A stretch of 64,000 bases of DNA. It comes from a virus. Lineage: Duplodnaviria > Caudoviricetes. The notes beneath the pieces were generated by a model. That model searched no databases, had not been told where the DNA came from, and saw only the letters and a list, made by a program, of their open reading frames with translations. Positions within the stretch are counted from its first letter, which is position 1. Each line of letters starts with the position of its first letter. Shown here in pieces: positions 1-38,391 of the stretch. A program made the translations under genes and the position numbers. Location of the stretch: the IMG/VR virus record IMGVR_UViG_3300025387_000015, positions 12,555 through 76,554 of that record; one strand, written 5' to 3'.

Positions 1-57
1 GTTTGTGATTACGATAGTAATTGTAACTGTAATTGTAATTGTAATTGTGGCGGTTAA
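1..57 (+). CDS. 3' end of an upstream gene ending VCDYDSNCNCNCNCNCGG-stop (Cys-rich NC-repeat tail); missed by the ORF track
   Basis: Frame 1 reads gtt tgt gat tac gat agt (aat/aac tgt)x5 ggc ggt taa; stop 55-57 lies 1 nt before the ATG at 59. Confidence 0.8.
   Translation, partial: VCDYDSNCNCNCNCNCGG
19..48 (+). repeat. 6-nt tandem repeat (AAYTGT)x5 encoding Asn-Cys x5
   Basis: aattgt aactgt aattgt aattgt aattgt. Confidence 0.9.
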
Positions 58-58
58 A

Positions 59-919
59 ATGACTCCTATAAAATTATTAAATTATTTTGCTACGACATCA
101 TACAACCATCCTGAGTATATGGAAGTAACTCAGAAAGATGATAATAATTTACAAGTTAATGCTAACATACTTCCTCCAAACAAACAACTCAGCTGGAATA
201 TAAATTTTGATGAACTTCTAAGATCAGAAGAATGTCAAAATGGAATGGGTGTTTGGACTCTAACTGGTTTTGCCAGAAAAGATTTTCAAAACGTTGAAAC
301 TGTAATAACACCTCCATTACAGAATGAACTAAAAAGATATTATCATGATAATTTTTTGGACTATGACGCTGCTTATCCTGGTCCAATTGAGAACAATCCT
401 GTAATCAAAAACATAGGATATCTTTTCGTTTCAGAACAAGAGAAGATATTATCTCTTGTTACTAATTATGTCTGTATAATAAAAACAAACATTAGATATA
501 AAAGAATTGATCTTCATCTAGCCGAGTATCCATTTTTTCCTATAGATGGCGCTAATAATGGTTATTTTATGACTGGTTCTATTACTGATAATACAGTGGC
601 AAACCCATTGAATAAGCCAAGTCCATTTAAACTAAATTATAAAGGACCAACTGAAGTATCTGGAAATAATTCTGTCAACTTAACCTTTGATGTTGAGTTT
701 CAAAATTTAGACTTAAAACCATGGAGCTATGGTGATTATAACAAGTTATATGCAGTGACAGATAAAGGCACAGTTGATACTTCTTGTGTTATTACCAATA
801 ACTCAGGCTCATTATCTTTTAGCGCCGCAAACATGAATGTTGGTGATACTGCTAATGTGAGAATTGGCGCTCATTGGTTCTACATATCAGAGGTATTTCA
901 AATAACTAAAACTTCTTAA
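59..919 (+). CDS. Hypothetical protein (~286 aa) between the NC-repeat gene and the radical SAM gene
   Basis: ORF track 5..919; the apparent ITIVIVTVIV N-terminus is the out-of-frame NC repeat, so ATG 59 is the likely start. Confidence 0.7.
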   Translation: MTPIKLLNYFATTSYNHPEYMEVTQKDDNNLQVNANILPPNKQLSWNINFDELLRSEECQNGMGVWTLTGFARKDFQNVETVITPPLQNELKRYYHDNFLDYDAAYPGPIENNPVIKNIGYLFVSEQEKILSLVTNYVCIIKTNIRYKRIDLHLAEYPFFPIDGANNGYFMTGSITDNTVANPLNKPSPFKLNYKGPTEVSGNNSVNLTFDVEFQNLDLKPWSYGDYNKLYAVTDKGTVDTSCVITNNSGSLSFSAANMNVGDTANVRIGAHWFYISEVFQITKTS

Positions 920-928
920 GGATATAAC

Positions 929-2212
929 ATGTTTAAACTTGAGTTACGAGATAGAGAAGGAAAAAATCATTATCTTTTTTATGATCCTCATAAGTCACTG
1001 ATCACTGATGAAGATGGAAATGATATAGTTTCTAATATAAAAGAAACTCAACAGTATAATACTGTTAAAGCAATATCTCCAGAAAATCATGGAAAGAAAA
1101 GTAAAAATATTAAAACACTAAAAATACAATTAGGATTGGCTTGTAACTATTCTTGTTCTTATTGCAGTCAAAAAGAAGAAATTAAATTTGGATCTAAAAC
1201 AAATATTAGAGATGCTGAAATATTCATGTCTAATTTGGATAAATGGTTAGTTGGTGAACCTAATAGAATTGAATTCTGGGGAGGTGAACCTTTATTATAC
1301 TGGAAAAAGATAAAATTCCTTGTAGAGAAATTATCTGAAAAGTATCCTAAAACAGAGTTTCTTATTATATCAAATGGTAGTTTACTTACTGATGAAATAA
1401 TCGAGTACATAGAAAAATATGATATTATATTTGTTATTTCTCATGATGGCCCTGGACAACATGTTCGTGGACCAGATCCATTTGATGATGAAAATCAATT
1501 TAATATGATTAAAAAATTATATAATGTTAGAAAAAATAAAGATAAGATGTGTTTTAATGCTATACTTTCTCCTGTTAATTACGACATAGAAAAAATTATT
1601 AGTTTCTTTAAAAATAAAATTGATGAAGATGTTAATGTTAACCTTGAAGGTGTTTTCATAAGTCATGAGGGTAACGATCAATATTTTACACAAGAACAAT
1701 ACAGTCAATTAACAAATAATGTTGCTCTTGCGTCTATGAAGCCAAGAAAAGAATTAATGGGTTGTTTTAATCATGCTATAAATGATTTTATAAAATCAAT
1801 TGTCACAAAAAGGCCATCAGACTCTCTTGGTTTACATTGTGGAATGGACAGTGAAGATAAAATATCAGTTGATCTTCTTGGTAATGTAATGACATGTCAG
1901 AATACTGGTGCTTTGGGAAAACATAGAATAGGTAATATACAAGATTTTGATAATATCAAATTGAATACATCTTGGCATTGGAAATATAGAGATGAATGTT
2001 CTGAATGTCCTGTGTTACAAATCTGCCAAGGTTCTTGTATGTATATGGAAGGAAAAAATTGGTATCATACTTGTAATAACTATTACCATTATAATATTGG
2101 TATTCTTGGGGGTGCATTATACCATATGACAGGTATGGTATTAACTGGAGTTTATGGCAAAATAAGAAGACCTAATCCAGAGCAATATGGAATTGAAGAT
2201 ACTAGCAAATAA
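929..2212 (+). CDS. Radical SAM protein with C-terminal SPASM domain (peptide/protein maturase type)
   Basis: CNYSCSYC (CxxxCxxC), FWGGEPLL, SPASM Cys pattern HCG..GNVMTC..CSECPVLQICQGSC..C. Confidence 0.9.
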   Translation: MFKLELRDREGKNHYLFYDPHKSLITDEDGNDIVSNIKETQQYNTVKAISPENHGKKSKNIKTLKIQLGLACNYSCSYCSQKEEIKFGSKTNIRDAEIFMSNLDKWLVGEPNRIEFWGGEPLLYWKKIKFLVEKLSEKYPKTEFLIISNGSLLTDEIIEYIEKYDIIFVISHDGPGQHVRGPDPFDDENQFNMIKKLYNVRKNKDKMCFNAILSPVNYDIEKIISFFKNKIDEDVNVNLEGVFISHEGNDQYFTQEQYSQLTNNVALASMKPRKELMGCFNHAINDFIKSIVTKRPSDSLGLHCGMDSEDKISVDLLGNVMTCQNTGALGKHRIGNIQDFDNIKLNTSWHWKYRDECSECPVLQICQGSCMYMEGKNWYHTCNNYYHYNIGILGGALYHMTGMVLTGVYGKIRRPNPEQYGIEDTSK

Positions 2213-2219
2213 TAATTTG

Positions 2220-2227
2220 TATAAATA
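2220..2227 (+). promoter_or_regulatory. T4-type late promoter TATAAATA
   Basis: Exact gp55 consensus upstream of the tail fibre gene. Confidence 0.75.
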
Positions 2228-2262: not shown

Positions 2263-5022
2263 ATGGCTGATAAAGATTTTAAGGTCAAGAATGGCCTAAC
2301 TGTAAATAATAACCTAATTTGGGCAAACAACGGTCAAATTGGATTTAATACTAACTCTCCAGACGCTAACGTAACTATTGTTGGTAATGCCAACACCCAA
2401 GGAAATGTAGCAATTACTGGTACTCTTGGAGTAAGCAACACCATATCTGTTACTGGGATCGCCACTTTTGGAAACTCAGTTTCTACCAATGGCAACATTT
2501 ATACCAACGGCTCTATCTACGCTCAAGGTATTGCTAACGTCCAGTCTTCGATTTATGGTTTTGCCAACCTAGCAATTGTTGGAAATACTACTCTTGGTAA
2601 CACTTTGAGCGTTGCTAATAATTCTTTATTCCTTGGCCCTGTTACTATGAACGCCACAACAACAATGGCAAACAACAGTAACCACAATGGCCCAGCCAAT
2701 TTTTCTAATACGATCACAGTTTTTGGTTATTCTAATTTAGTTTATAACACTGCAGTTGGCGGAACATTTATATCTAATGGTGCTGCAACATTCTCCAATT
2801 CAATCGCAGTTACTGGTAATGCTACATTTTCTAATTCAGTAGCTGTTACTGGAAACGTCACTTTCTCTAATACTTTAGTTGTGACGGGTAATGTTATTTT
2901 TTCAAACACAATAAATGGAAGAAACGTTTACGAATTCCTTGTCGCAAACAACTCAACACCGTACAATATTACCGGACAATTTAAATTTTATAATTCTATA
3001 ACAATTCTTGGTGCATTGATAGATGGCGGAGGTAATAGTGGTGGCGCAAATAATGTATTAATCTCTAATAATGGCACAGTATTCTGGGGTCCAATTGGTT
3101 CGGCTTCTGTTACTGCTCCTGCTGCCAATGGTTTACCTTCATATGCATCAAACACACAAATTATTTTCAATGACAGAGGTGGATTAAGTTCTAACGTTAA
3201 TATAACATATAATATGGATAATTATACATTTACTGCTCCAGTAATTGTTTGTTCTAATGGCACTTTATCATTAAATGCAACATCTAGCTACTTTTTTTCA
3301 AATGGATTAATTAGTTTTGGTATCAATAATCCTACTAATAAATTACACGTAGTAAGTTCATTAAACTCTGCCGATGGTATTATCGTAAGAAACACTAATA
3401 CTGGTTCTTCTTCTCAATCATATATTTCGTTAGGAACTTCTGCTGCTTCTGGTTTTAATATCGGACAAAATTATTCTGATAAATCTGCTTATATAAATCT
3501 TGTTGATAATTCATATTTAAATATTAGCGCAAATAACAGTTCAAAATTATATATCTCCGCGAACGGCAATGTTGGTGTTGGAACTACTTCTCCTGCTTAT
3601 GGTTTAGATATATCTGGTATTATCAGAGGTACAAGTGAATTTATAAGCACATCATATGGCAATGGCGGTCAATTCCGTGCTATTTCTGGCAACTATGGTG
3701 TAATGTTTAGGAATGATGGTTCTAATTTTTATCTATTATCTACTGCTTCAGGAAGTCAATATGGTTCTTACAATTCTTTAAGACCTTTTAATTATAACCT
3801 TGGAACCGGTGCAGTAAGCATTGATGGAACTGGAGCAGGTACTACGTTTGGTGGTACAATTAGTTCTGGCGCTATTTCATCTTCAGGTGGGTTATCTGGA
3901 ACTACTGGAACTTTTAGTTCTACAGTTTCTTCTACACCAGGTGGTTCTTTGGGTCTTAATATAAATGGTTCGAGCTGGATGATCGGACTGCAGCTCAACA
4001 GCGGTACAGTATCAAGAGCATATAATGATGGTACACCAAGATGGAATTTTGAACACAGACCAGTATTTGCTGGCAATCTAGCTCTTGACGCAGGCAATTA
4101 TAATAATTATGCCCCATCTAAAGATGGCACAGGCGCTTATGGTAACTGGAATATTAATGCAGTTGGCCTTACTGGTTATACTATTAATCAGAATTTAGGT
4201 ACAGGCAATTCACCAACATTTTCTGGTTTAACAACTGTTGGTGATATTGTCACATACAGAAGCGGAGGAACTACTGGTTATCACTTTTTGAATAGTGCAA
4301 CAACAAGATATATTGGATTCGATGGTAGCAATTACGTAATGCCTAGTTCTGATCTATATGTTAATGGTGGTCGTGTTCTTACTTCTAGTAATTATACTGG
4401 ATACAATAGTTGGGGTGGAACGGGAATATATGCAGAAAGATTCTATGATTATTATAGCAACGGATATTTTTTCATAGGTCGTAGTCAGTCAAGAATGAGT
4501 TCTGTTAATCTTGATGTTGGTGTTTGGAATTATTCATCAGAAGGTTGGGCTAGAATATTATTTAATAATTCAGCTAGTACTGTGTATCGTGGCGCTAGCA
4601 CAAGTCAGTGGGTTCATGAATTCCAAACAAATGATGGTGACACTAAATGGTTGATGGCTGCAGCTGGTGATTTTTATGCTAAAGGAAATGTTGTTGCATA
4701 TTGGACATCAGATATAAAATTTAAAGAAAATATTAAACCATTATCAAATGCATTGAGTAAAATCAATAAAATAAATGGCGTGGAATTTGATTGGAAAGAT
4801 GATTATCTGGATACTTTAGCAATAAAAGATCCATATTATATCAAAAAACATGATGTTGGTGTTATTGCACAAGAGATTGAAGAAGTATTACCACAGATAG
4901 TTTCAACTAAAGAAGATGGAACTAAGGCTGTAAGATATGAAAAGATTGTTGCTCTATTGATTCAAGGAATAAAAGAACTTTCCGATGAGGTTAGTGAATT
5001 AAAGAAACAGGTTAAAGGATAA
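2263..5022 (+). CDS. Tail fibre/spike protein with C-terminal intramolecular chaperone (peptidase S74)
   Basis: N/G/S/T-rich beta repeats; C-terminal WTSDIKFKENIKPL...HDVGVIAQEIEEVLP...YEKIVALLIQGIKEL. Confidence 0.88.
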   Translation: MADKDFKVKNGLTVNNNLIWANNGQIGFNTNSPDANVTIVGNANTQGNVAITGTLGVSNTISVTGIATFGNSVSTNGNIYTNGSIYAQGIANVQSSIYGFANLAIVGNTTLGNTLSVANNSLFLGPVTMNATTTMANNSNHNGPANFSNTITVFGYSNLVYNTAVGGTFISNGAATFSNSIAVTGNATFSNSVAVTGNVTFSNTLVVTGNVIFSNTINGRNVYEFLVANNSTPYNITGQFKFYNSITILGALIDGGGNSGGANNVLISNNGTVFWGPIGSASVTAPAANGLPSYASNTQIIFNDRGGLSSNVNITYNMDNYTFTAPVIVCSNGTLSLNATSSYFFSNGLISFGINNPTNKLHVVSSLNSADGIIVRNTNTGSSSQSYISLGTSAASGFNIGQNYSDKSAYINLVDNSYLNISANNSSKLYISANGNVGVGTTSPAYGLDISGIIRGTSEFISTSYGNGGQFRAISGNYGVMFRNDGSNFYLLSTASGSQYGSYNSLRPFNYNLGTGAVSIDGTGAGTTFGGTISSGAISSSGGLSGTTGTFSSTVSSTPGGSLGLNINGSSWMIGLQLNSGTVSRAYNDGTPRWNFEHRPVFAGNLALDAGNYNNYAPSKDGTGAYGNWNINAVGLTGYTINQNLGTGNSPTFSGLTTVGDIVTYRSGGTTGYHFLNSATTRYIGFDGSNYVMPSSDLYVNGGRVLTSSNYTGYNSWGGTGIYAERFYDYYSNGYFFIGRSQSRMSSVNLDVGVWNYSSEGWARILFNNSASTVYRGASTSQWVHEFQTNDGDTKWLMAAAGDFYAKGNVVAYWTSDIKFKENIKPLSNALSKINKINGVEFDWKDDYLDTLAIKDPYYIKKHDVGVIAQEIEEVLPQIVSTKEDGTKAVRYEKIVALLIQGIKELSDEVSELKKQVKG
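2788..2913 (+). repeat. 36-nt (12-aa) coding tandem repeat TFSNS(I/V)AVTGN(A/V), about 3.5 copies
   Basis: TFSNSIAVTGNA / TFSNSVAVTGNV / TFSNTLVVTGNV / IFSNTI. Confidence 0.85.
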
Positions 5023-5391: not shown

Positions 5392-6102
5392 ATGTCTTTA
5401 CCTGGTTCTGGGCAAATATCTTTAGGTGATGTAAGATCCATCATCCAACCAGGAGGTGGTCAAATAGATATGAACAATGGTAATGGTAGATATATGGCCC
5501 ATGGTAGTTTTGATTATAACACATGGATCAGTATGAGTGATTTTCGTAACAAACCAAGTTCCGGTGGAATTAGTTATACTACCGGTAATGGATATGCAGT
5601 AAATACTTGGTATTCTTTCATTTGTCCTGCTTATCAAACCTTCGCAGCTTCAGTTAATGGTGGTGGTGGCGGCGGTGGTGGCGGAGATAACCACAATGGA
5701 CCATATGGCAACAATGGTGATCCAGGCGGCCCAGGAGCTCCTACATATTTTCAGTTTCCTGGTTTCGTAAGTCACGGTTATGGTGGAGCTGCCGGTGGTG
5801 GCAATGCTGGTTGTGGAAACGTTGCTGCCGGTGGTGGCGCTGATGCCACAGGTGGTTTTGGTTCATTTACTGGAGGTGGGGCAGCAAACGGTGGTAGATG
5901 TGGTAATCCTCAACAAGGCGGAGCTTGGGGAGGAACTGGAGGTTCTGGTGGGACAGCTTATTCTGTTTTTACTTTTAATTCCAGCCCATACTATCCAGGT
6001 TATTCGTCAACGGTTAGCGTATATATAGGTAATGGTGGCACTGCTGGCCCACAAAATGCTGGACCTGGTGGCGCTGGATATGTTAATGTATCTTGGTCTT
6101 AA
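5392..6102 (+). CDS. Glycine-rich tail adhesin-like protein (gp38-like architecture)
   Basis: N-terminal MSLPGSGQISLGDV..ISMSDFRNK followed by poly-Gly motifs (GGGGGGGG, GAAGGG, GNGG); sits after the fibre. Confidence 0.6.
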   Translation: MSLPGSGQISLGDVRSIIQPGGGQIDMNNGNGRYMAHGSFDYNTWISMSDFRNKPSSGGISYTTGNGYAVNTWYSFICPAYQTFAASVNGGGGGGGGGDNHNGPYGNNGDPGGPGAPTYFQFPGFVSHGYGGAAGGGNAGCGNVAAGGGADATGGFGSFTGGGAANGGRCGNPQQGGAWGGTGGSGGTAYSVFTFNSSPYYPGYSSTVSVYIGNGGTAGPQNAGPGGAGYVNVSWS

Positions 6103-6120: not shown

Positions 6121-6633
6121 ATGGATCTTTACATTCAATTAAAAGATGGTGAACCTTTTGAACACCCAATTCCTGATTGGAATATGAAAATGTTTTTCCC
6201 AGATCTTGACCCTAGTAACCCACCAGAGGGGTTTGGGAGATTTGAAAGAGTTCCTTATCCAGAATTGACACCAACACAAATAGTTGATAAAATTAATTAT
6301 GAATTAAGTAACTACTATACAGATCTTTATAAAACTAAAACTTGGACAGACGTATATCATGTAAGAGATTTATCACAAGAAGAATTAGATAAAATAAACA
6401 ATGATAGTATACCACCAAAACCAAATGATGGTAAAGATTATTACTACGATGACAACCTAAAGAAATGGATTGATAGTTCACTGGCTATTGATGTGTTCAG
6501 ACCTTTCTTCAAAAAATACAATATTGATTTTAAAACTTTTGATTTCGAAACATTAGATGGCCTAACTCCTGATCAGAAAAAAGAATTCGGTCAATTATTG
6601 TTACAACTAAACAAACAAGCTGCCATTTCTTAA
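6121..6633 (+). CDS. Hypothetical protein, possibly tail-fibre assembly associated
   Basis: ORF in the fibre cassette with WTDVYHVRDL and YYYDDNLKKW motifs. Confidence 0.5.
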   Translation: MDLYIQLKDGEPFEHPIPDWNMKMFFPDLDPSNPPEGFGRFERVPYPELTPTQIVDKINYELSNYYTDLYKTKTWTDVYHVRDLSQEELDKINNDSIPPKPNDGKDYYYDDNLKKWIDSSLAIDVFRPFFKKYNIDFKTFDFETLDGLTPDQKKEFGQLLLQLNKQAAIS

Positions 6634-6649
6634 AAATTAGGATTCATTA

Positions 6650-8215
6650 ATGGATAAAATTATATCTAGGGAATGGATCCCTAATGACTCTAAATTTTAT
6701 GCAGTTTCAGATTCTTTCAATAGCAAAGTTCAAGAATTTTCAAAAGAACAACTTTGTGTTATTATAGATTATTATAAAAACAAATTAGTAGACGCTGGCG
6801 TTGAACCTGGGCAAAAAATAGGAATAGGATTTGCCTCTACAGATATTTCTTATACCGCTATTATTTTTGCTGCAGCCGAACTTGGTCTTAAGTTAGTAGT
6901 TCTCAACACTCTTACTTCTTTAAGGTTGATCAAATCCGCTAAATGTAGTGCTCATATGCCACTAGATGTATTTGTGTATTACCAATATAGGAACACTCAT
7001 TTAGATCAGCTATTGAGAAATATCAAATACTATATTAATAATTCAAAAAAAGTTATACAAATAGATACAAATTGGTCATCAGAATCAATAAATTCTATTC
7101 CTAGAATTCCATTATACGCAAAACCAGAAAATGATTTATTGTTGTGTAGCAGTTCTGGAACAACTGGTGCACCAAAATTAATACATCACAACCAAGAATA
7201 CCTTTACGATTTGGCAAAATACAACTGGGAACCATTAGAATTAAACGAAAATGATTCTGTATATCATTTTTCTAGTTTGAATCATGGAGCTTCTCTGAGT
7301 GTGTTTTTCTTACCTGCCGTAAATAAATGTAAGAAACATTACTTTGATTTACCAACAGAACTAAGAAGTCAAATAGATCACGAAAAAAACTTTGTATTCC
7401 AAGCATGTAAATTGTGCAACATTACTGTTATATTATCTCCGAACAATAATATAACCGATGGTATAATTGAAGCTATACAGGATTCAGAAGATGGTTTACC
7501 AAATACGACAATTATAGTTCTTACTTTTATTAATCCTAGATGGTTAAATGTAGTAAAATCTGGCAAACTAAAAAAGATTATAAGCGCATTTGGATGTTCA
7601 GAAGCAGGTGGTCCAATATTACTGCCATACATAGATAAAAACACAGATATAAATTCTTTTGATCCTAAATTTCTAGGAAAACCATTAGAAGGGTTTTTCA
7701 AAACAAACGTAGTTGATGGTATGTTAACAGTAAATCTTCCTAATGGAAATACCGTAGAAACAGAAGACATCATCAAAGAAACAGAAAATGGTTATTATTT
7801 TGTAAGAAAAAACAAACTTAAAAAAATAAATGATATTGACATAAATCCTTTAGACATAATTGGATTACTTGAAACATACTGTTCCAGAAGCAGATTTGAA
7901 ATAGTAATCGAAGAAGTTTACAATAAACTTTACATAGTTACTGACAACCAAACCATGATAGACTATGAAGATGATATAAAGAAAATAATTAAAAATTTCT
8001 ACGACGGGGAAGTAAACCTAACAGCTGTTATTTTCATGCCTAATTTTTCCGATGCTATAGTTTCAATAAAACCTGATAGGGACATTCTTTTAGACTACAT
8101 TAGAGAAAGAGATTACTTCATGGGAAGCGTAGATGGTTTACCAAATATTCCACGTAAAGCTGTTGAAACTTTTTTTAAAACAATAAATGAAGAAATTAAG
8201 AAAATAAATAAATAA
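6650..8215 (+). CDS. Adenylate-forming (ANL/AMP-binding) enzyme, divergent
   Basis: P-loop SSSGTTGAPKLI, AFGCSEAGG (YGxTE-like), TEDII (TGD-like). Confidence 0.75.
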   Translation: MDKIISREWIPNDSKFYAVSDSFNSKVQEFSKEQLCVIIDYYKNKLVDAGVEPGQKIGIGFASTDISYTAIIFAAAELGLKLVVLNTLTSLRLIKSAKCSAHMPLDVFVYYQYRNTHLDQLLRNIKYYINNSKKVIQIDTNWSSESINSIPRIPLYAKPENDLLLCSSSGTTGAPKLIHHNQEYLYDLAKYNWEPLELNENDSVYHFSSLNHGASLSVFFLPAVNKCKKHYFDLPTELRSQIDHEKNFVFQACKLCNITVILSPNNNITDGIIEAIQDSEDGLPNTTIIVLTFINPRWLNVVKSGKLKKIISAFGCSEAGGPILLPYIDKNTDINSFDPKFLGKPLEGFFKTNVVDGMLTVNLPNGNTVETEDIIKETENGYYFVRKNKLKKINDIDINPLDIIGLLETYCSRSRFEIVIEEVYNKLYIVTDNQTMIDYEDDIKKIIKNFYDGEVNLTAVIFMPNFSDAIVSIKPDRDILLDYIRERDYFMGSVDGLPNIPRKAVETFFKTINEEIKKINK

Positions 8216-11147: not shown

Positions 11148-12786
11148 CGACAAATTATTAGGTGGCTATAAAGGTAATGTCCTTCTAAAGAAATCAAATC
11201 AGTCTATAGAGTGGACTCAGGATTTAATCCAGGAATACATAAAGTGTCAGGAAGATCCAGTTTACTTTACTGAAAATTACATGAAAATCATTAACGTGGA
11301 CGAAGGTCTGGTTTCTTTTAAATTGTATGATTACCAAAAAGAAATGGTAACTTCCTTTAAAGATAACCGTTATAGTATTATTACTACTGCTCGTCAGGCA
11401 GGTAAATCAACAACTACTTGTGCTTTCATTTTATGGTATATAATTTTCAATCCTGAGAAAACTGTTGCATTGCTGGCCAACAAAGGCGATACGGCTCGAG
11501 AAATTCTTGGACGTGTTCAATTAGCATATCAGCATCTACCAAAATGGTTGCAACAGGGTGTTTTGGAATGGAACAAAGGTTCATTCGTTTTAGAAAATAA
11601 TTCAAGAGTTATCGCTGCTGCTACTTCTGCTTCTGCCATTCGTGGTTATTCTATCAACTTGCTGTTTATCGACGAAGCGGCGTTCATTGAAAACTGGGAC
11701 GAATTCTTTACGTCAGTATATCCAACAATTTCGTCTGGTTCTGAATCAAAAATTATACTTGTATCCACACCAAATGGTCTTAATCATTTTTATGCAACTT
11801 GGGTAAACGCTCAAGAAGGAAAAAATGGCTATAATCCAATATTAGTTAATTGGCAAAAAGTTCCTGGCAGAGACGAAGAATGGAAAAATAATACTATAGC
11901 AGGTATGAACTTCGATCTGGAAAAATTCGATCAGGAGTACAACTGTGAATTCCTAGGCTCTTCTGGCACTCTTATAGCTGGCTGGAAACTTAAAGAACTG
12001 GTGCATCAAGCGCCAATGGTAGAAAAGGAAGGTTTAATACAATATTTTCAACCCGAGAAAAATGATGTATATATGATGGTTTGTGACGTTTCTCGAGGTA
12101 AAGGTTTGGACTACTCGGCATTTCAATTGATAAATGTTTCAAGAATGCCTTATCAGCAAACTTGCGTATACAGAAATAACGCTGTTACACCAATTGATTA
12201 CGCTGAAGTAATCCATAGAGTAGCGAAAGCATATAATAATGCTTCTGTTCTGGTTGAAGTCAATGACATCGGTGAACAGGTTTCGCACTCTTTACACTAT
12301 GATTTTGGTTATGAACACGTACTGTTTACAGAAAACGCTGGTAGATCTGGTAAAAGAATTACTAGTGGGTTTGGTGGTGCTGCTGTCGATAAAGGCATCA
12401 GAACTACTAAAATTGTTAAATCTGTTGGTTGTTCCATTTTAAAACTTTTAGTGGAACAGAACCAATTTGTCGTTAACGATTTTCATACGATCAACGAATT
12501 ATCAACGTTCTCCAAGAAAGGAACTTCCTATGAAGCAGAACCTGGTAAGCACGATGATCTGGTTATGTGTCTAGTGCTTTTCGCTTGGCTTTCCGAACAA
12601 CAATATTTCAAGGATTATACTAATATTAATACCTTGAATTCACTAAGAGATAAAACTGAAGAGGACATGGAACAAGACATGGCCCCCTTTGGCTTTCTAG
12701 AAGATGGTAGAGATGGCTTTATTAATGATGAATTTGTTCAAATGCACCCAGACGCCTGGATGTGGCAAGAACAACCTGACTTCTAA
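11140..12786 (+). CDS. gp17: Terminase large subunit gp17
   Basis: ARQAGKST Walker A, LFIDEAAF Walker B, DVSRGKGLDYS, HDDLVM. Confidence 0.95.
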   Translation: MSDDKLLGGYKGNVLLKKSNQSIEWTQDLIQEYIKCQEDPVYFTENYMKIINVDEGLVSFKLYDYQKEMVTSFKDNRYSIITTARQAGKSTTTCAFILWYIIFNPEKTVALLANKGDTAREILGRVQLAYQHLPKWLQQGVLEWNKGSFVLENNSRVIAAATSASAIRGYSINLLFIDEAAFIENWDEFFTSVYPTISSGSESKIILVSTPNGLNHFYATWVNAQEGKNGYNPILVNWQKVPGRDEEWKNNTIAGMNFDLEKFDQEYNCEFLGSSGTLIAGWKLKELVHQAPMVEKEGLIQYFQPEKNDVYMMVCDVSRGKGLDYSAFQLINVSRMPYQQTCVYRNNAVTPIDYAEVIHRVAKAYNNASVLVEVNDIGEQVSHSLHYDFGYEHVLFTENAGRSGKRITSGFGGAAVDKGIRTTKIVKSVGCSILKLLVEQNQFVVNDFHTINELSTFSKKGTSYEAEPGKHDDLVMCLVLFAWLSEQQYFKDYTNINTLNSLRDKTEEDMEQDMAPFGFLEDGRDGFINDEFVQMHPDAWMWQEQPDF

Positions 12787-25006: not shown

Positions 25007-25645
25007 ATGGAGTATTTCATTGAGAACAAAACAACATTACAACTATTTCCTAGTTTAGTGTTTCAGGGTAAGATAAATGATGATAGTCTGTGTGATAGAT
25101 TAGAAGAATATCTTTTGTCTTTGTGGAAAAATAAAGAGGGAATATTTGCCGAAGAAGAGGGGTTTACTTCTCACGATAATCTAAATGATAAACCAGAATT
25201 AAAAGAGTTATCTGATATTGTTTTGAAAGAAAGTAATTTTATACTAAATTTCTTTAAAGTAAAAAGAGACTCGCATTTTATAACTTCAATGTGGGCGAAT
25301 ATTTCTAGAGGAAGAAATATGCATCTAAAGCATATTCATCCTAATTCTTTTTTAAGTGGAGTGTTTTATGTTAAAACTCCAAAAGATTGTGGTCAGTTAG
25401 TAATAACAGACCCAAGACCTGGAAGTGAAGTAATACAACCAGACTATCATGAACGTGATGTATATAATTGTGGAAAGTATCATATTATACCAGAAAAAGG
25501 TAATATACATTTTTGGCAGAGTTGGTTGCCTCATTGTGTAGAAAAAGCATATTCTAAATCAGAAGAGAACAGAATATGCATTGCCTTTAATATTATGATA
25601 AAAGGTAAAGCTGTGAACCCAACTCAGAGATATGATTTTAATTGA
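25007..25645 (+). CDS. Putative 2OG-Fe(II) oxygenase (TIGR02466-like)
   Basis: HIHPNSFLSGVFYV, DPRP, WLPHCV, RICIAFN. Confidence 0.75.
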   Translation: MEYFIENKTTLQLFPSLVFQGKINDDSLCDRLEEYLLSLWKNKEGIFAEEEGFTSHDNLNDKPELKELSDIVLKESNFILNFFKVKRDSHFITSMWANISRGRNMHLKHIHPNSFLSGVFYVKTPKDCGQLVITDPRPGSEVIQPDYHERDVYNCGKYHIIPEKGNIHFWQSWLPHCVEKAYSKSEENRICIAFNIMIKGKAVNPTQRYDFN

Positions 25646-37573: not shown

Positions 37574-37932
37574 ACCCTTTTGACTTAGTAAATGATATAT
37601 CATATGCAAAGAAATATATTCTAGAAGAAGAAAAGCATTATTTACCCTTTATAGTAAATACTCATTTTTCTTATTTTGGTGATTCTATATTCTTTGCTAA
37701 TGAAATGAATATGAATTACCATTTAGATAAGAAATTACAACATGACTATTATTTTCATGCCCTTCGTAAAAACAAAAGAAAGTCTAAATGGCACAAAAAA
37801 GGAAATGAAGACTCATTAGATTGCATACAACGTTATTATGGATATGGACCACAAAAGGCAAAAGAAGCTGCCAAGATCTTATCCAAGAAACAGGTCGAAT
37901 ATATTGTTAAAAAAATGACTCCAGAAGCATAA
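37570..37932 (+). CDS. gp62: Clamp loader small subunit gp62
   Basis: YLPFIVN, ANEMN, YYGY; synteny. Confidence 0.88.
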   Translation: MNPFDLVNDISYAKKYILEEEKHYLPFIVNTHFSYFGDSIFFANEMNMNYHLDKKLQHDYYFHALRKNKRKSKWHKKGNEDSLDCIQRYYGYGPQKAKEAAKILSKKQVEYIVKKMTPEA

Positions 37933-37943
37933 ACACAATTTTA

Positions 37944-37951
37944 TATAAATA
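37944..37951 (+). promoter_or_regulatory. T4-type late promoter TATAAATA
   Basis: Exact consensus upstream of regA. Confidence 0.65.
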
Positions 37952-37986
37952 TTCGGTATGCAATAATAATAAGAAAAGGGTGAATT

Positions 37987-38391
37987 ATGAATGATATTTT
38001 AGACTCTCTAATTGAGGTTAAGATTGATGGAGAAGAGTCTTTCTTAAAGATCAAAGAAACTCTAACTAGAATTGGTGTTGCTTCTCGTAAAGAAAACAAG
38101 TTATACCAATCCTGTCATATCTTCCATAAACAAGGGCATTATTATATTGTCCATTTTAAAGAAATGTTTATAATTGATGGAAAACCATCAAATTTCTCAG
38201 AAGAAGATATGGGTCGCCGAAACAAAATTGCAGAACTACTCCAAGACTGGGGTCTATTGAAAATTGTAGACCAAGAAAGAATCAAAGATCCAATCGCACC
38301 AATGAATCAGATCAAAGTTCTTAATTATAAAGAAAAAGATCAATGGACATTGGAAGCAAAATATCAGATAGGTCGTAAACGAACCACTTAA
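37987..38391 (+). CDS. regA: Translational repressor RegA
   Basis: FLKIKETLTRIGVAS, LYQSCHIFHKQGHYYIVHFKE. Confidence 0.95.
   Translation: MNDILDSLIEVKIDGEESFLKIKETLTRIGVASRKENKLYQSCHIFHKQGHYYIVHFKEMFIIDGKPSNFSEEDMGRRNKIAELLQDWGLLKIVDQERIKDPIAPMNQIKVLNYKEKDQWTLEAKYQIGRKRTT

Follow-up and report, generated by a model that had tools for sequence, protein, structure and literature searches.

The window analysed here, a stretch of 64,000 nucleotides, corresponds to positions 12555–76554 of a 76,554-base IMG/VR record of a tailed phage (IMGVR_UViG_3300025387_000015); the 12,554 bases of upstream DNA were also analysed (L002; G000 has the same numbering). The gene content around the window start identifies the phage as a T4-like myovirus and the locus as its variable fibre region. 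Here, a small gene whose product ends in alternating asparagine and cysteine residues (pep65), a gene for a 286-aa accessory protein (p286) and a gene for a radical S-adenosylmethionine (SAM) enzyme with a SPASM domain are found in the order 741-aa fibre, pep65, p286, enzyme, 919-aa fibre, DUF7936, Gly-rich protein, AMP-binding enzyme, T4 gp13-like neck genes. A first-pass annotation, made from the letters of the window alone, had already described a tight array of tail gene, open reading frame (ORF) and SPASM enzyme followed by a fibre gene, and this description holds: a single base separates the pep65 stop from the p286 ATG, 9 bases separate p286 from the enzyme gene, which starts 872 nt 3' of the pep65 stop codon, and the SPASM Cys set is full.

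The same annotation had noticed the hidden 3' end of a gene in frame 1 at the very start of the window. Retrieval of the upstream DNA yielded the complete gene, which has 65 codons (L002:12414–12611) and starts 141 bases upstream of window base 1. Its 3' end (V48 to G65 and the TAA stop; window 1..57, plus strand) translates in frame 1 as V-C-D-Y-D-S-(N-C)5-G-G-stop. The ATG lies 22 nt after the stop of the 741-aa tail fibre, which has an S74-type C-terminus, and an AAAGGAG ribosome site is present 8 nt 5' of it. The gene caller's 304-aa version of p286, which starts at GTG 5, overlaps the pep65 tail in another frame, and this call probably hid the tail from the first ORF track. The six Cys of pep65 are residues 49, 55, 57, 59, 61 and 63, five of them in the tail, where (N-C)5 holds four overlapping N-x-x-C motifs; the sulfatase motif C/S-x-P/A-x-R is absent from the tail. 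The N-terminus, M-A-Y-Y-I-G-G-T-A-V-V-D, conforms to a motif, M-A-Y-x-I-G-G-T-x-V-x-D, that also occurs in small Cys-tailed proteins of related loci. A search of a 5.8-billion-protein database at near lengths identifies the exact self entry of pep65 and no other homologue, and there is no Pfam, NCBIfam or PHROG family match. At the DNA level, the tail (window 22–51) is a near-perfect six-base repeat (AAT/AAC-TGT, five copies), at which in-frame slippage could change how many Asn-Cys units the tail has from one virus population to another; the tails found across loci have 3 to 9 units.

The third gene (window 929..2212, plus strand) encodes a 427-aa protein for which Pfam, NCBIfam and PHROG searches indicate membership in the radical SAM superfamily and the presence of a SPASM domain. 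The protein matches PF04055 with 44 bits (cut-off 29.5), as well as PF13353, and the SPASM model TIGR04085 with 35.9 bits (cut-off 27), and it belongs to phrog_1802, phage radical SAM domain protein (E 7e-61, residues 25–388). The SAM-cluster motif, C72-x3-C76-x2-C79, and all seven SPASM cysteines, C304-x13-G-x4-C323, C357-x2-C360-x5-C366-x3-C370 and C382, are invariant in 26 relatives with 40–68% identity; the seven-Cys set is the motif for two auxiliary clusters. With 2744 relatives at E <= 1e-20, the family is large, and most of its members come from metagenomes, viral contigs and probable prophages. Among the NCBIfam models, PapB ranks first, with the nif11-peptide maturase, CcpM and the SCIFF maturase also on top; the enzyme is nevertheless no member of the PapB-family ranthipeptide maturases (NF047865, the best named family, 86.1 bits against a cut-off of 340), of the SCIFF maturases CteB/ScfB (TIGR03974, 62.1 bits against 425) or of the anaerobic sulfatase maturases (anSME; TIGR03942, 33.7 bits against 349). 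The AlphaFold2 (AF2) model has a mean confidence score (pLDDT) of 92.7 and in structure comparison comes closest to CteB (5WHY, E 2.5e-14, TMq 0.58), which forms thioethers, followed by anSME and, further down, by ChlB, TigE, SuiB and SkfB. Among solved proteins, the nearest in sequence are TigE (8VPO), which acts on a peptide as a cyclopropyl synthase, and CteB (5WGG). Residues 1–60 are modelled as three short beta strands (2–7, 13–19 and 24–26), with no winged helix; the first-pass annotation had proposed that the N-terminal ~50 residues could recognise the substrate, and if they do, it would not be through a PqqD-type element.

The gene between these two (p286, window 59..919, plus strand) starts at ATG 59, the position from which its homologues align. 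It has no Pfam, PHROG or NCBIfam match, and only 7 relatives were found among 1.84 billion representatives. In the AF2 model, only residues 190–286 are confident; an Ig-like beta sandwich makes up the C-terminal ~100 residues, the N-terminal 187 residues have no assigned fold, and the C-terminal fold matches are generic Ig-like domains (Z 8–9) that provide no functional lead.

The T4-type late-promoter consensus, TATAAATA, is found in the gap that separates the enzyme gene from the fibre gene after it (window 2220..2227, plus strand) and also upstream of pep65, where it overlaps the stop codon of the 741-aa fibre (L002:12387–12394). With 11 occurrences in the window against 9.8 expected, the motif shows no excess over chance, so that only intergenic placement counts; the copy at 2220–2227 is suggestive of the 3' limit of a three-gene unit.

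Co-occurrence of cysteine-repeat tails and the enzyme family

The connection between tail and enzyme was examined from both ends. A scan of IMG/VR with the single enzyme protein gave nothing; an alignment-based scan gave 80 loci, 38 of which have at least 3.5 kb on both sides of the enzyme gene and were counted. A tract was defined as at least 3 X-Cys units, with N, D or Q as at least 2 of the X residues, on the same strand and in a frame of at least 50 aa. Such a same-strand N/D-Cys tract is present in 32 of the 38 loci, compared with 4/38 for the opposite (minus) strand. The tract ends 12 or fewer residues from the stop in 23 of the 32, and 150–230 residues follow it in another 5. Three of the six tract-negative loci have looser Cys tails, e.g., N-C-A-C-A-C-A-C-A-C-G-K. 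In this sample, to which the search pattern brings no bias, Cys alternates with N in 65%, D in 13% and A in 12% of cases.

The reverse sample was anchored on the tail: a search with the DNA pattern for NCNCNCNC yielded 118 further viral stretches, and the matches were deduplicated, with C-terminal tails taken in frames of at least 70 aa. A same-strand enzyme homologue accompanies 44 of the 45 distinct C-terminal (NC)4 tails, compared with 2 of the 28 other matches (Fisher p 2e-16), and both exceptions among the latter are real variants. In a strict count that requires at least 4 kb of downstream sequence, the enzyme is present on the same strand for 30/31 C-terminal (NC)4 tails and for 0/26 other in-frame matches. 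Thus, an (NC)n tail is nearly always accompanied by a nearby member of this enzyme family, as the first-pass annotation had predicted in tying such tails to the radical SAM enzyme. If a module is defined by at least 3 alternating X-Cys units (X mostly N, D or A) at the mature C-terminus of a fibre-module protein, together with a same-strand enzyme of the phrog_1802 type no more than a few kb away, the pep65 locus, with five units plus GG, is one.

These counts bear on the simplest alternative, namely that the tract has no function and is a hexanucleotide repeat, (AAT-TGT)n, that arose by chance in an AT-rich genome. The simplicity of the six-base repeat and the lack of any database homologue of pep65 other than itself are what one would expect in this case. 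However, the tract is the sole alternating-Cys run in any frame of at least 60 aa in the whole 76.5-kb record, and it is in frame with a promoter motif and a ribosome site; because such tracts co-occur with the enzyme at other loci, and none of the 26 short or out-of-context NCNCNCNC matches does, the chance origin has a negligible probability.

The same counts are relevant to a second alternative, in which the tail is a metal- or Fe-S-binding fibre tip and the enzyme serves another target or only loads or handles the metal; metal loading had also been considered in the first-pass annotation. The needle of T4 gp37, with its His-x-His iron sites, provides an analogue. On a beta strand, the alternation places all Cys on one face, which would suit a metal ladder in a trimer, and the closest relative of the enzyme has no Cys tail nearby (see below). 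This alternative, however, leaves unexplained the presence of a same-strand enzyme within a few kb of nearly every C-terminal tail, as well as the restriction of the partner residues to N, D and A, and we consider it unlikely.

Carriers of the tails and relatives of the locus

The proteins that carry the tails are of two kinds. Long carriers (300–690 aa) fall into PHROG tail-fibre families, and collagen triple-helix repeats occur in several of them, so that the large carriers are predicted to be trimeric fibres. Small proteins, in stop-free frames of at most 135 aa, account for about a third of the carriers. One subgroup of these starts with the motif M-A-[YFV]-K-[IV]-G-x-T-x-V-[IV]-D-x-x-G-x-x-x-W, and its loci encode the enzymes most similar to that of the window phage (40–44% identity). 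A separate family of 67–82-aa proteins (in L093, L101, L144 and L186) has H-T-H-x-F-[YF]-D-D-Y-x-T before an (NC)4-5 tail and accompanies enzymes with 25–34% identity. In L156, L183 and L199, proteins of ~100–134 aa with repeated C-Q-x motifs end in N/D-C-D-C-G-D-D and are encoded ~1.7 kb downstream of a radical SAM enzyme with 24–25% identity, a third tail/enzyme pairing.

The pairing is also present in cultured, unrelated phages. In Ralstonia phage RSP15, the side tail fibre ends with N-C-Q-C-G-N, and two uncharacterized genes separate its gene from that of an enzyme 39% identical to the one described here. In Achromobacter phage JWF, the tract N-C-N-C-D-C-N-C-N-C-S of gp028 directly precedes Cys1 of a Hint domain (Hom_end_hint in Pfam, starting at residue 308), and one uncharacterized gene separates gp028 from an enzyme with 36% identity. 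Direct fusion of the tract to a Hint (intein-like) domain is seen in four fibre proteins, L004:2835–4286 (JWF gp028), L044:2521–4032, L073:3864–5294 and L215:7085–7873. Hint domains cleave at their own first residue. The arrangement of these fusions therefore suggests self-cleavage that exposes the tract. After such a cut, the chain would end with the tract, so that what all the carriers seem to require is a Cys-repeat tail that is free at the C-terminus. In addition, proteins of ~290–300 aa encoded downstream of the enzyme (L045:7467–8357, L050:2138–3004 and L100) contain an NC tract followed by ~165–205 residues that begin with S-K-I-I-C-T-K-L-F; this region has no Pfam match and may be another self-removing or partner domain.

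The overall gene arrangement is kept in three T4-like contigs, L205, L214 and L215, in which the enzymes are 50–55% identical to the query. The gene order is fibre, two or three small proteins with a shared N-terminal motif, p286 homologue, enzyme, and gp13/neck. Some of the small proteins have no Cys, the last one is Cys-tailed, and one in L215 combines an NC-like tract with a Hint domain; compared with these contigs, the window phage has the minimal form with one small protein. The Cys-free paralogues (L205:4464–4818, L214:1904–2303 and L215:6888–7085) retain the N-terminal motif, which implies a role of the motif that is independent of the Cys tail, in fibre docking or as a shared leader. 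The 85-codon Cys-tailed ORF L205:4830–5087, with 12 Cys within its last 18 residues, was missed by the gene caller of the source, and small Cys-tail genes are likely to be under-annotated in public phage records. The p286 homologues occupy the same position, between the Cys-tailed gene and the enzyme gene, in all three contigs (blastp E 8e-34, 6e-15 and 7.5e-5, the last two over the C-terminal domain only). A tblastn search with p286 and pep65 against the first 80 enzyme loci yields self matches only, the p286 relatives having been found later, in these closer T4-like contigs. RSP15 ORF047 shows a weak match to the C-terminal part of p286 (E 0.013 in a single comparison), and JWF gp029 does not match p286. 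It is possible that p286 is a lineage-specific helper or a structural partner.

The small size of pep65 (65 aa) raises the possibility that it is a genuine precursor of a ribosomally made, post-translationally modified peptide (RiPP), with a conserved leader and a Cys core, that is released as a free toxin, signal or host-takeover peptide. The first-pass annotation had left the choice between such a precursor and the tip of a virion or tail protein. In related phages, the paralogues have a conserved N-terminus in common but diverge at the C-terminal end, as in families of RiPP precursors, and CrpA and CrpB show the same leader-like pattern. Against this, no protease or transporter/exporter domain is detectable with Pfam, NCBIfam or PHROG among the scanned neighbours (fibres, DUF7936, Gly-rich protein, AMP-binding enzyme and gp13), so that the locus lacks the leader protease and/or exporter of a classical RiPP gene cluster. 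Furthermore, pep65 is preceded by a late-promoter motif and lies between fibre genes; the same tails terminate tail fibres of 300–690 aa and collagen-like fibres; the Hint-fused forms imply a protein C-terminus; and the tail-less paralogues keep the N-terminal motif. The free peptide thus seems very unlikely, and the second of the two options, the tip of a virion or tail protein, fits better with the fibre and collagen-like carriers.

The closest relative of the enzyme (68% identity) comes from L203/L207, which share the right flank of the locus (918-aa fibre, DUF7936, gp13 and neck). In place of pep65 and p286, these contigs encode a 338-aa protein with the SGGxDS motif of PP-loop proteins and a 98-aa protein (L203:4690–5999), and the surroundings (L207:1–10000) include genes for a 2-oxoglutarate (2OG) oxygenase, a cupin, a class IV aminotransferase, a methyltransferase and a hydrolase.

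Downstream of the array in the window phage, the 919-aa tail fibre (window 2263..5022, plus strand) contains Gp34_trimer and S74 intramolecular chaperone domains (Pfam) and is taken here as genomic context. Between DUF7936 and the gp13 neck gene, there are genes for a 236-aa Gly-rich protein (5392–6102), a 170-aa protein (6121–6633) and a 521-aa AMP-binding (adenylate-forming) enzyme (6650–8215). In L207, gp13 directly follows DUF7936, and these genes therefore represent a three-gene insertion in the structural module, where an acyl- or aminoacyl-adenylating enzyme is unusual. The gene for a 2OG-Fe(II) oxygenase (PF13759, 84.7 bits) lies 23 kb away from the cassette, at about 25286–25591 of the window (G000 37840–38145); in other phages, such oxygenases adjoin the radical SAM gene. 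The Asp/Asn beta-hydroxylase family PF05118 has no match in the record, and control genomes gave no match either.

A proposed modification of fibre tails

As the pairing of tail and enzyme recurs across phages, it is very probable that phages modify the ends of host-binding fibre proteins. For the form that this takes, these observations lead us to lean, without strong conviction, towards the following explanation. The genes for pep65, p286 and the enzyme would be a late-expressed unit inside the tail-fibre (host-recognition) cluster, and pep65 would belong, as its smallest member, to a class of phage fibre-module proteins that in mature form end in Cys residues alternating with Asn, Asp or Ala. 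The enzyme would modify this tail, likely by thioethers, and we infer that the two are enzyme and substrate and that the modified tail is located in the virion. Specifically, a Cys thiolate would bind an auxiliary Fe-S cluster, the 5'-deoxyadenosyl radical would abstract a hydrogen from a side-chain carbon of the neighbouring Asn, and a ranthionine-type thioether between the Cys sulfur and that carbon would form. Since each N-C-N-C stretch is itself an N-x-x-C motif, a single tail could hold several overlapping links, within one chain or between fibre chains. Such a reaction, carried out in the reducing cytoplasm, would yield either a covalent staple that is insensitive to redox state or a tip with altered chemistry, with p286 acting as a lineage-specific helper or structural partner. 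CteB has a seven-Cys SPASM domain with an open site on one auxiliary cluster that binds the substrate Cys, and the seven invariant Cys of the phage enzyme are consistent with a CteB-like site of this kind.

Several observations weigh against this explanation. Co-occurrence alone does not prove that two proteins are an enzyme-substrate pair, 3 of the 38 enzyme-anchored loci have no Cys tail whatever, and the subset collected with NCNCNCNC is enriched in Asn by construction. The L203/L207 enzyme, although the closest relative, is flanked for 10 kb in both directions by sequence without any Cys-rich ORF, so that its substrate is either encoded elsewhere or something different; this clade may act on a different substrate or in a different pathway in these phages. 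Outside the tail, the relation of pep65 to the other small proteins is weak and at best suggestive: a tail-less profile of related small proteins scores pep65 at 8.6 bits, rank 3 of 2001 sequences including 2000 shuffles. As for the enzyme, all named NCBIfam maturase families are matched far below their cut-offs, a PqqD-type recognition element is detected neither in the Pfam scan nor in the AF2 model, and the fold match to anSME (4K39, E 1.8e-12, TMq 0.57) nearly equals that to CteB. Since anSME is almost as good a match as CteB and fold similarity is common to all SPASM enzymes, the fold confirms the SPASM class but does not select the reaction; nor does the sequence fix it, given the low NCBIfam scores and the fact that the nearest solved sequence, TigE, makes C-C bonds.

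The latter points are those that would be expected if the enzyme acts on the tail by another chemistry, such as formylglycine oxidation as in anSME, epimerisation, or the formation of C-C bonds or alpha-carbon (sactionine) links. On the other side, the anSME profile yields only 33.7 bits compared with 86 for PapB, which bears out the original expectation that the enzyme would not group with sulfatase maturases. Moreover, the tail has no C/S-x-P/A-x-R sulfatase motif, and its invariant Cys alternating with N, D or A matches the donor-acceptor pattern of known thioether systems. Hence a different chemistry on the tail appears fairly unlikely, and side-chain thioethers, in which Cys sulfur would be joined to a carbon of Asn or Asp, are the most likely product by analogy, given the partner residues N, D and A and the precedents of NxxcB, PapB, QhpD and CrpC.

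Within the thioether explanation, an inter-chain staple is attractive in view of the collagen-type carriers. In its fullest form, phages of many lineages would weld the Asn-Cys tails of three fibre chains into an inter-chain thioether knot, with Hint domains exposing the tail in some of them, a scenario that we regard as doubtful but worth stating. Such a knot would be a cytoplasm-compatible substitute for a cystine knot, fixing or tuning the receptor-binding tip, and would represent the first enzymatic covalent cross-link of the host-recognition organ of a virus and the first RiPP-type chemistry on a virion protein. More generally, if the tails are cross-linked, fibres carry a modification that structure prediction, proteomics searches and phage engineering ignore, and a fibre transferred to another phage without the enzyme could misfold or no longer work. 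RiPP-type radical chemistry would then extend from small secreted peptides to virus particles, with a large, easily mined enzyme family (the 2744 proteins at E <= 1e-20) and a very simple substrate motif. The question is directly testable in JWF and RSP15, the cultured phages that carry the module.

Comparison with known systems

The literature searched, from which most subscription journals are absent, describes neither Cys-repeat fibre tails nor a role for this family of phage enzymes. One of the closest known systems is that of NxxcB, a streptococcal radical SAM enzyme of a RiPP system that links the Cys sulfur to the Asn beta-carbon in N-x-x-C (PMC9389541). The native acceptor is Asn, with Ala, Gln and Asp tolerated, and Ser or Thr is not tolerated in place of Cys (PMC9389541). 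The phage tails also contain N-x-x-C, and their residues, N, then D and A, and rarely Q, are the NxxcB acceptors; both enzymes are radical SAM proteins with auxiliary clusters, a comparison made by description and not by sequence. Unlike NxxcB/NxxcA, the phage locus has no Rgg/SHP quorum-sensing context, the carrier is a fibre-module protein or a whole fibre instead of a short secreted peptide, and the motifs overlap in tandem.

PapB and CteB provide the best NCBIfam and fold matches, respectively, and resemble the phage system in the seven-Cys SPASM domain and in the Cys-rich C-terminal substrate encoded just upstream. They differ in that the phage enzyme scores only 86 and 62 bits against the cut-offs of 340 and 425, has three short strands at the N-terminus instead of a recognition element of ~100 aa, and is paired with a tail in which the spacing is C-x-C and not C-x3-D or the SCIFF pattern. 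A winged-helix recognition element is present in CteB and CrpC and missing in the model of the phage enzyme.

Links from Cys to Asp or Glu side chains are made by PapB and QhpD, and the SPASM enzymes of the CrpC/CrpA (Methanococcus voltae) and QhpD/QhpC pairs install thioethers on whole proteins (PMC13692751). As proposed for the phage enzyme, a SPASM protein here cross-links a repetitive Cys-rich protein region, and paralogous substrates share the N-terminal region. However, TIGR04463 gives only 42 bits for the phage enzyme against a cut-off of 525, and CrpC and QhpD target cellular proteins that have C-x-x-Q/D motifs and whose role is enzymatic or unknown, whereas the phage carriers are viral fibre proteins with alternating N-C.

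Among phages, radical SAM cassettes have been reported in the host-recognition cluster of pelagimyophages, as gene presence only and with no substrate, motif or function named (PMC7029224); these aquatic T4-like phages have the cassettes in the same genomic place, the variable stretch of fibre genes immediately upstream of the neck genes gp13/gp14. In a paper on cyanophages, such a gene is listed as an antibiotic-synthesis gene (PMC12801897). Thus, the enzyme type and the encoding of a Cys-rich substrate beside a SPASM maturase are already known, whereas several features are new: viral fibre proteins as the substrate class, a motif of alternating N-C, the absence of a recognition element, variants exposed by Hint domains, and the accessory family of p286.

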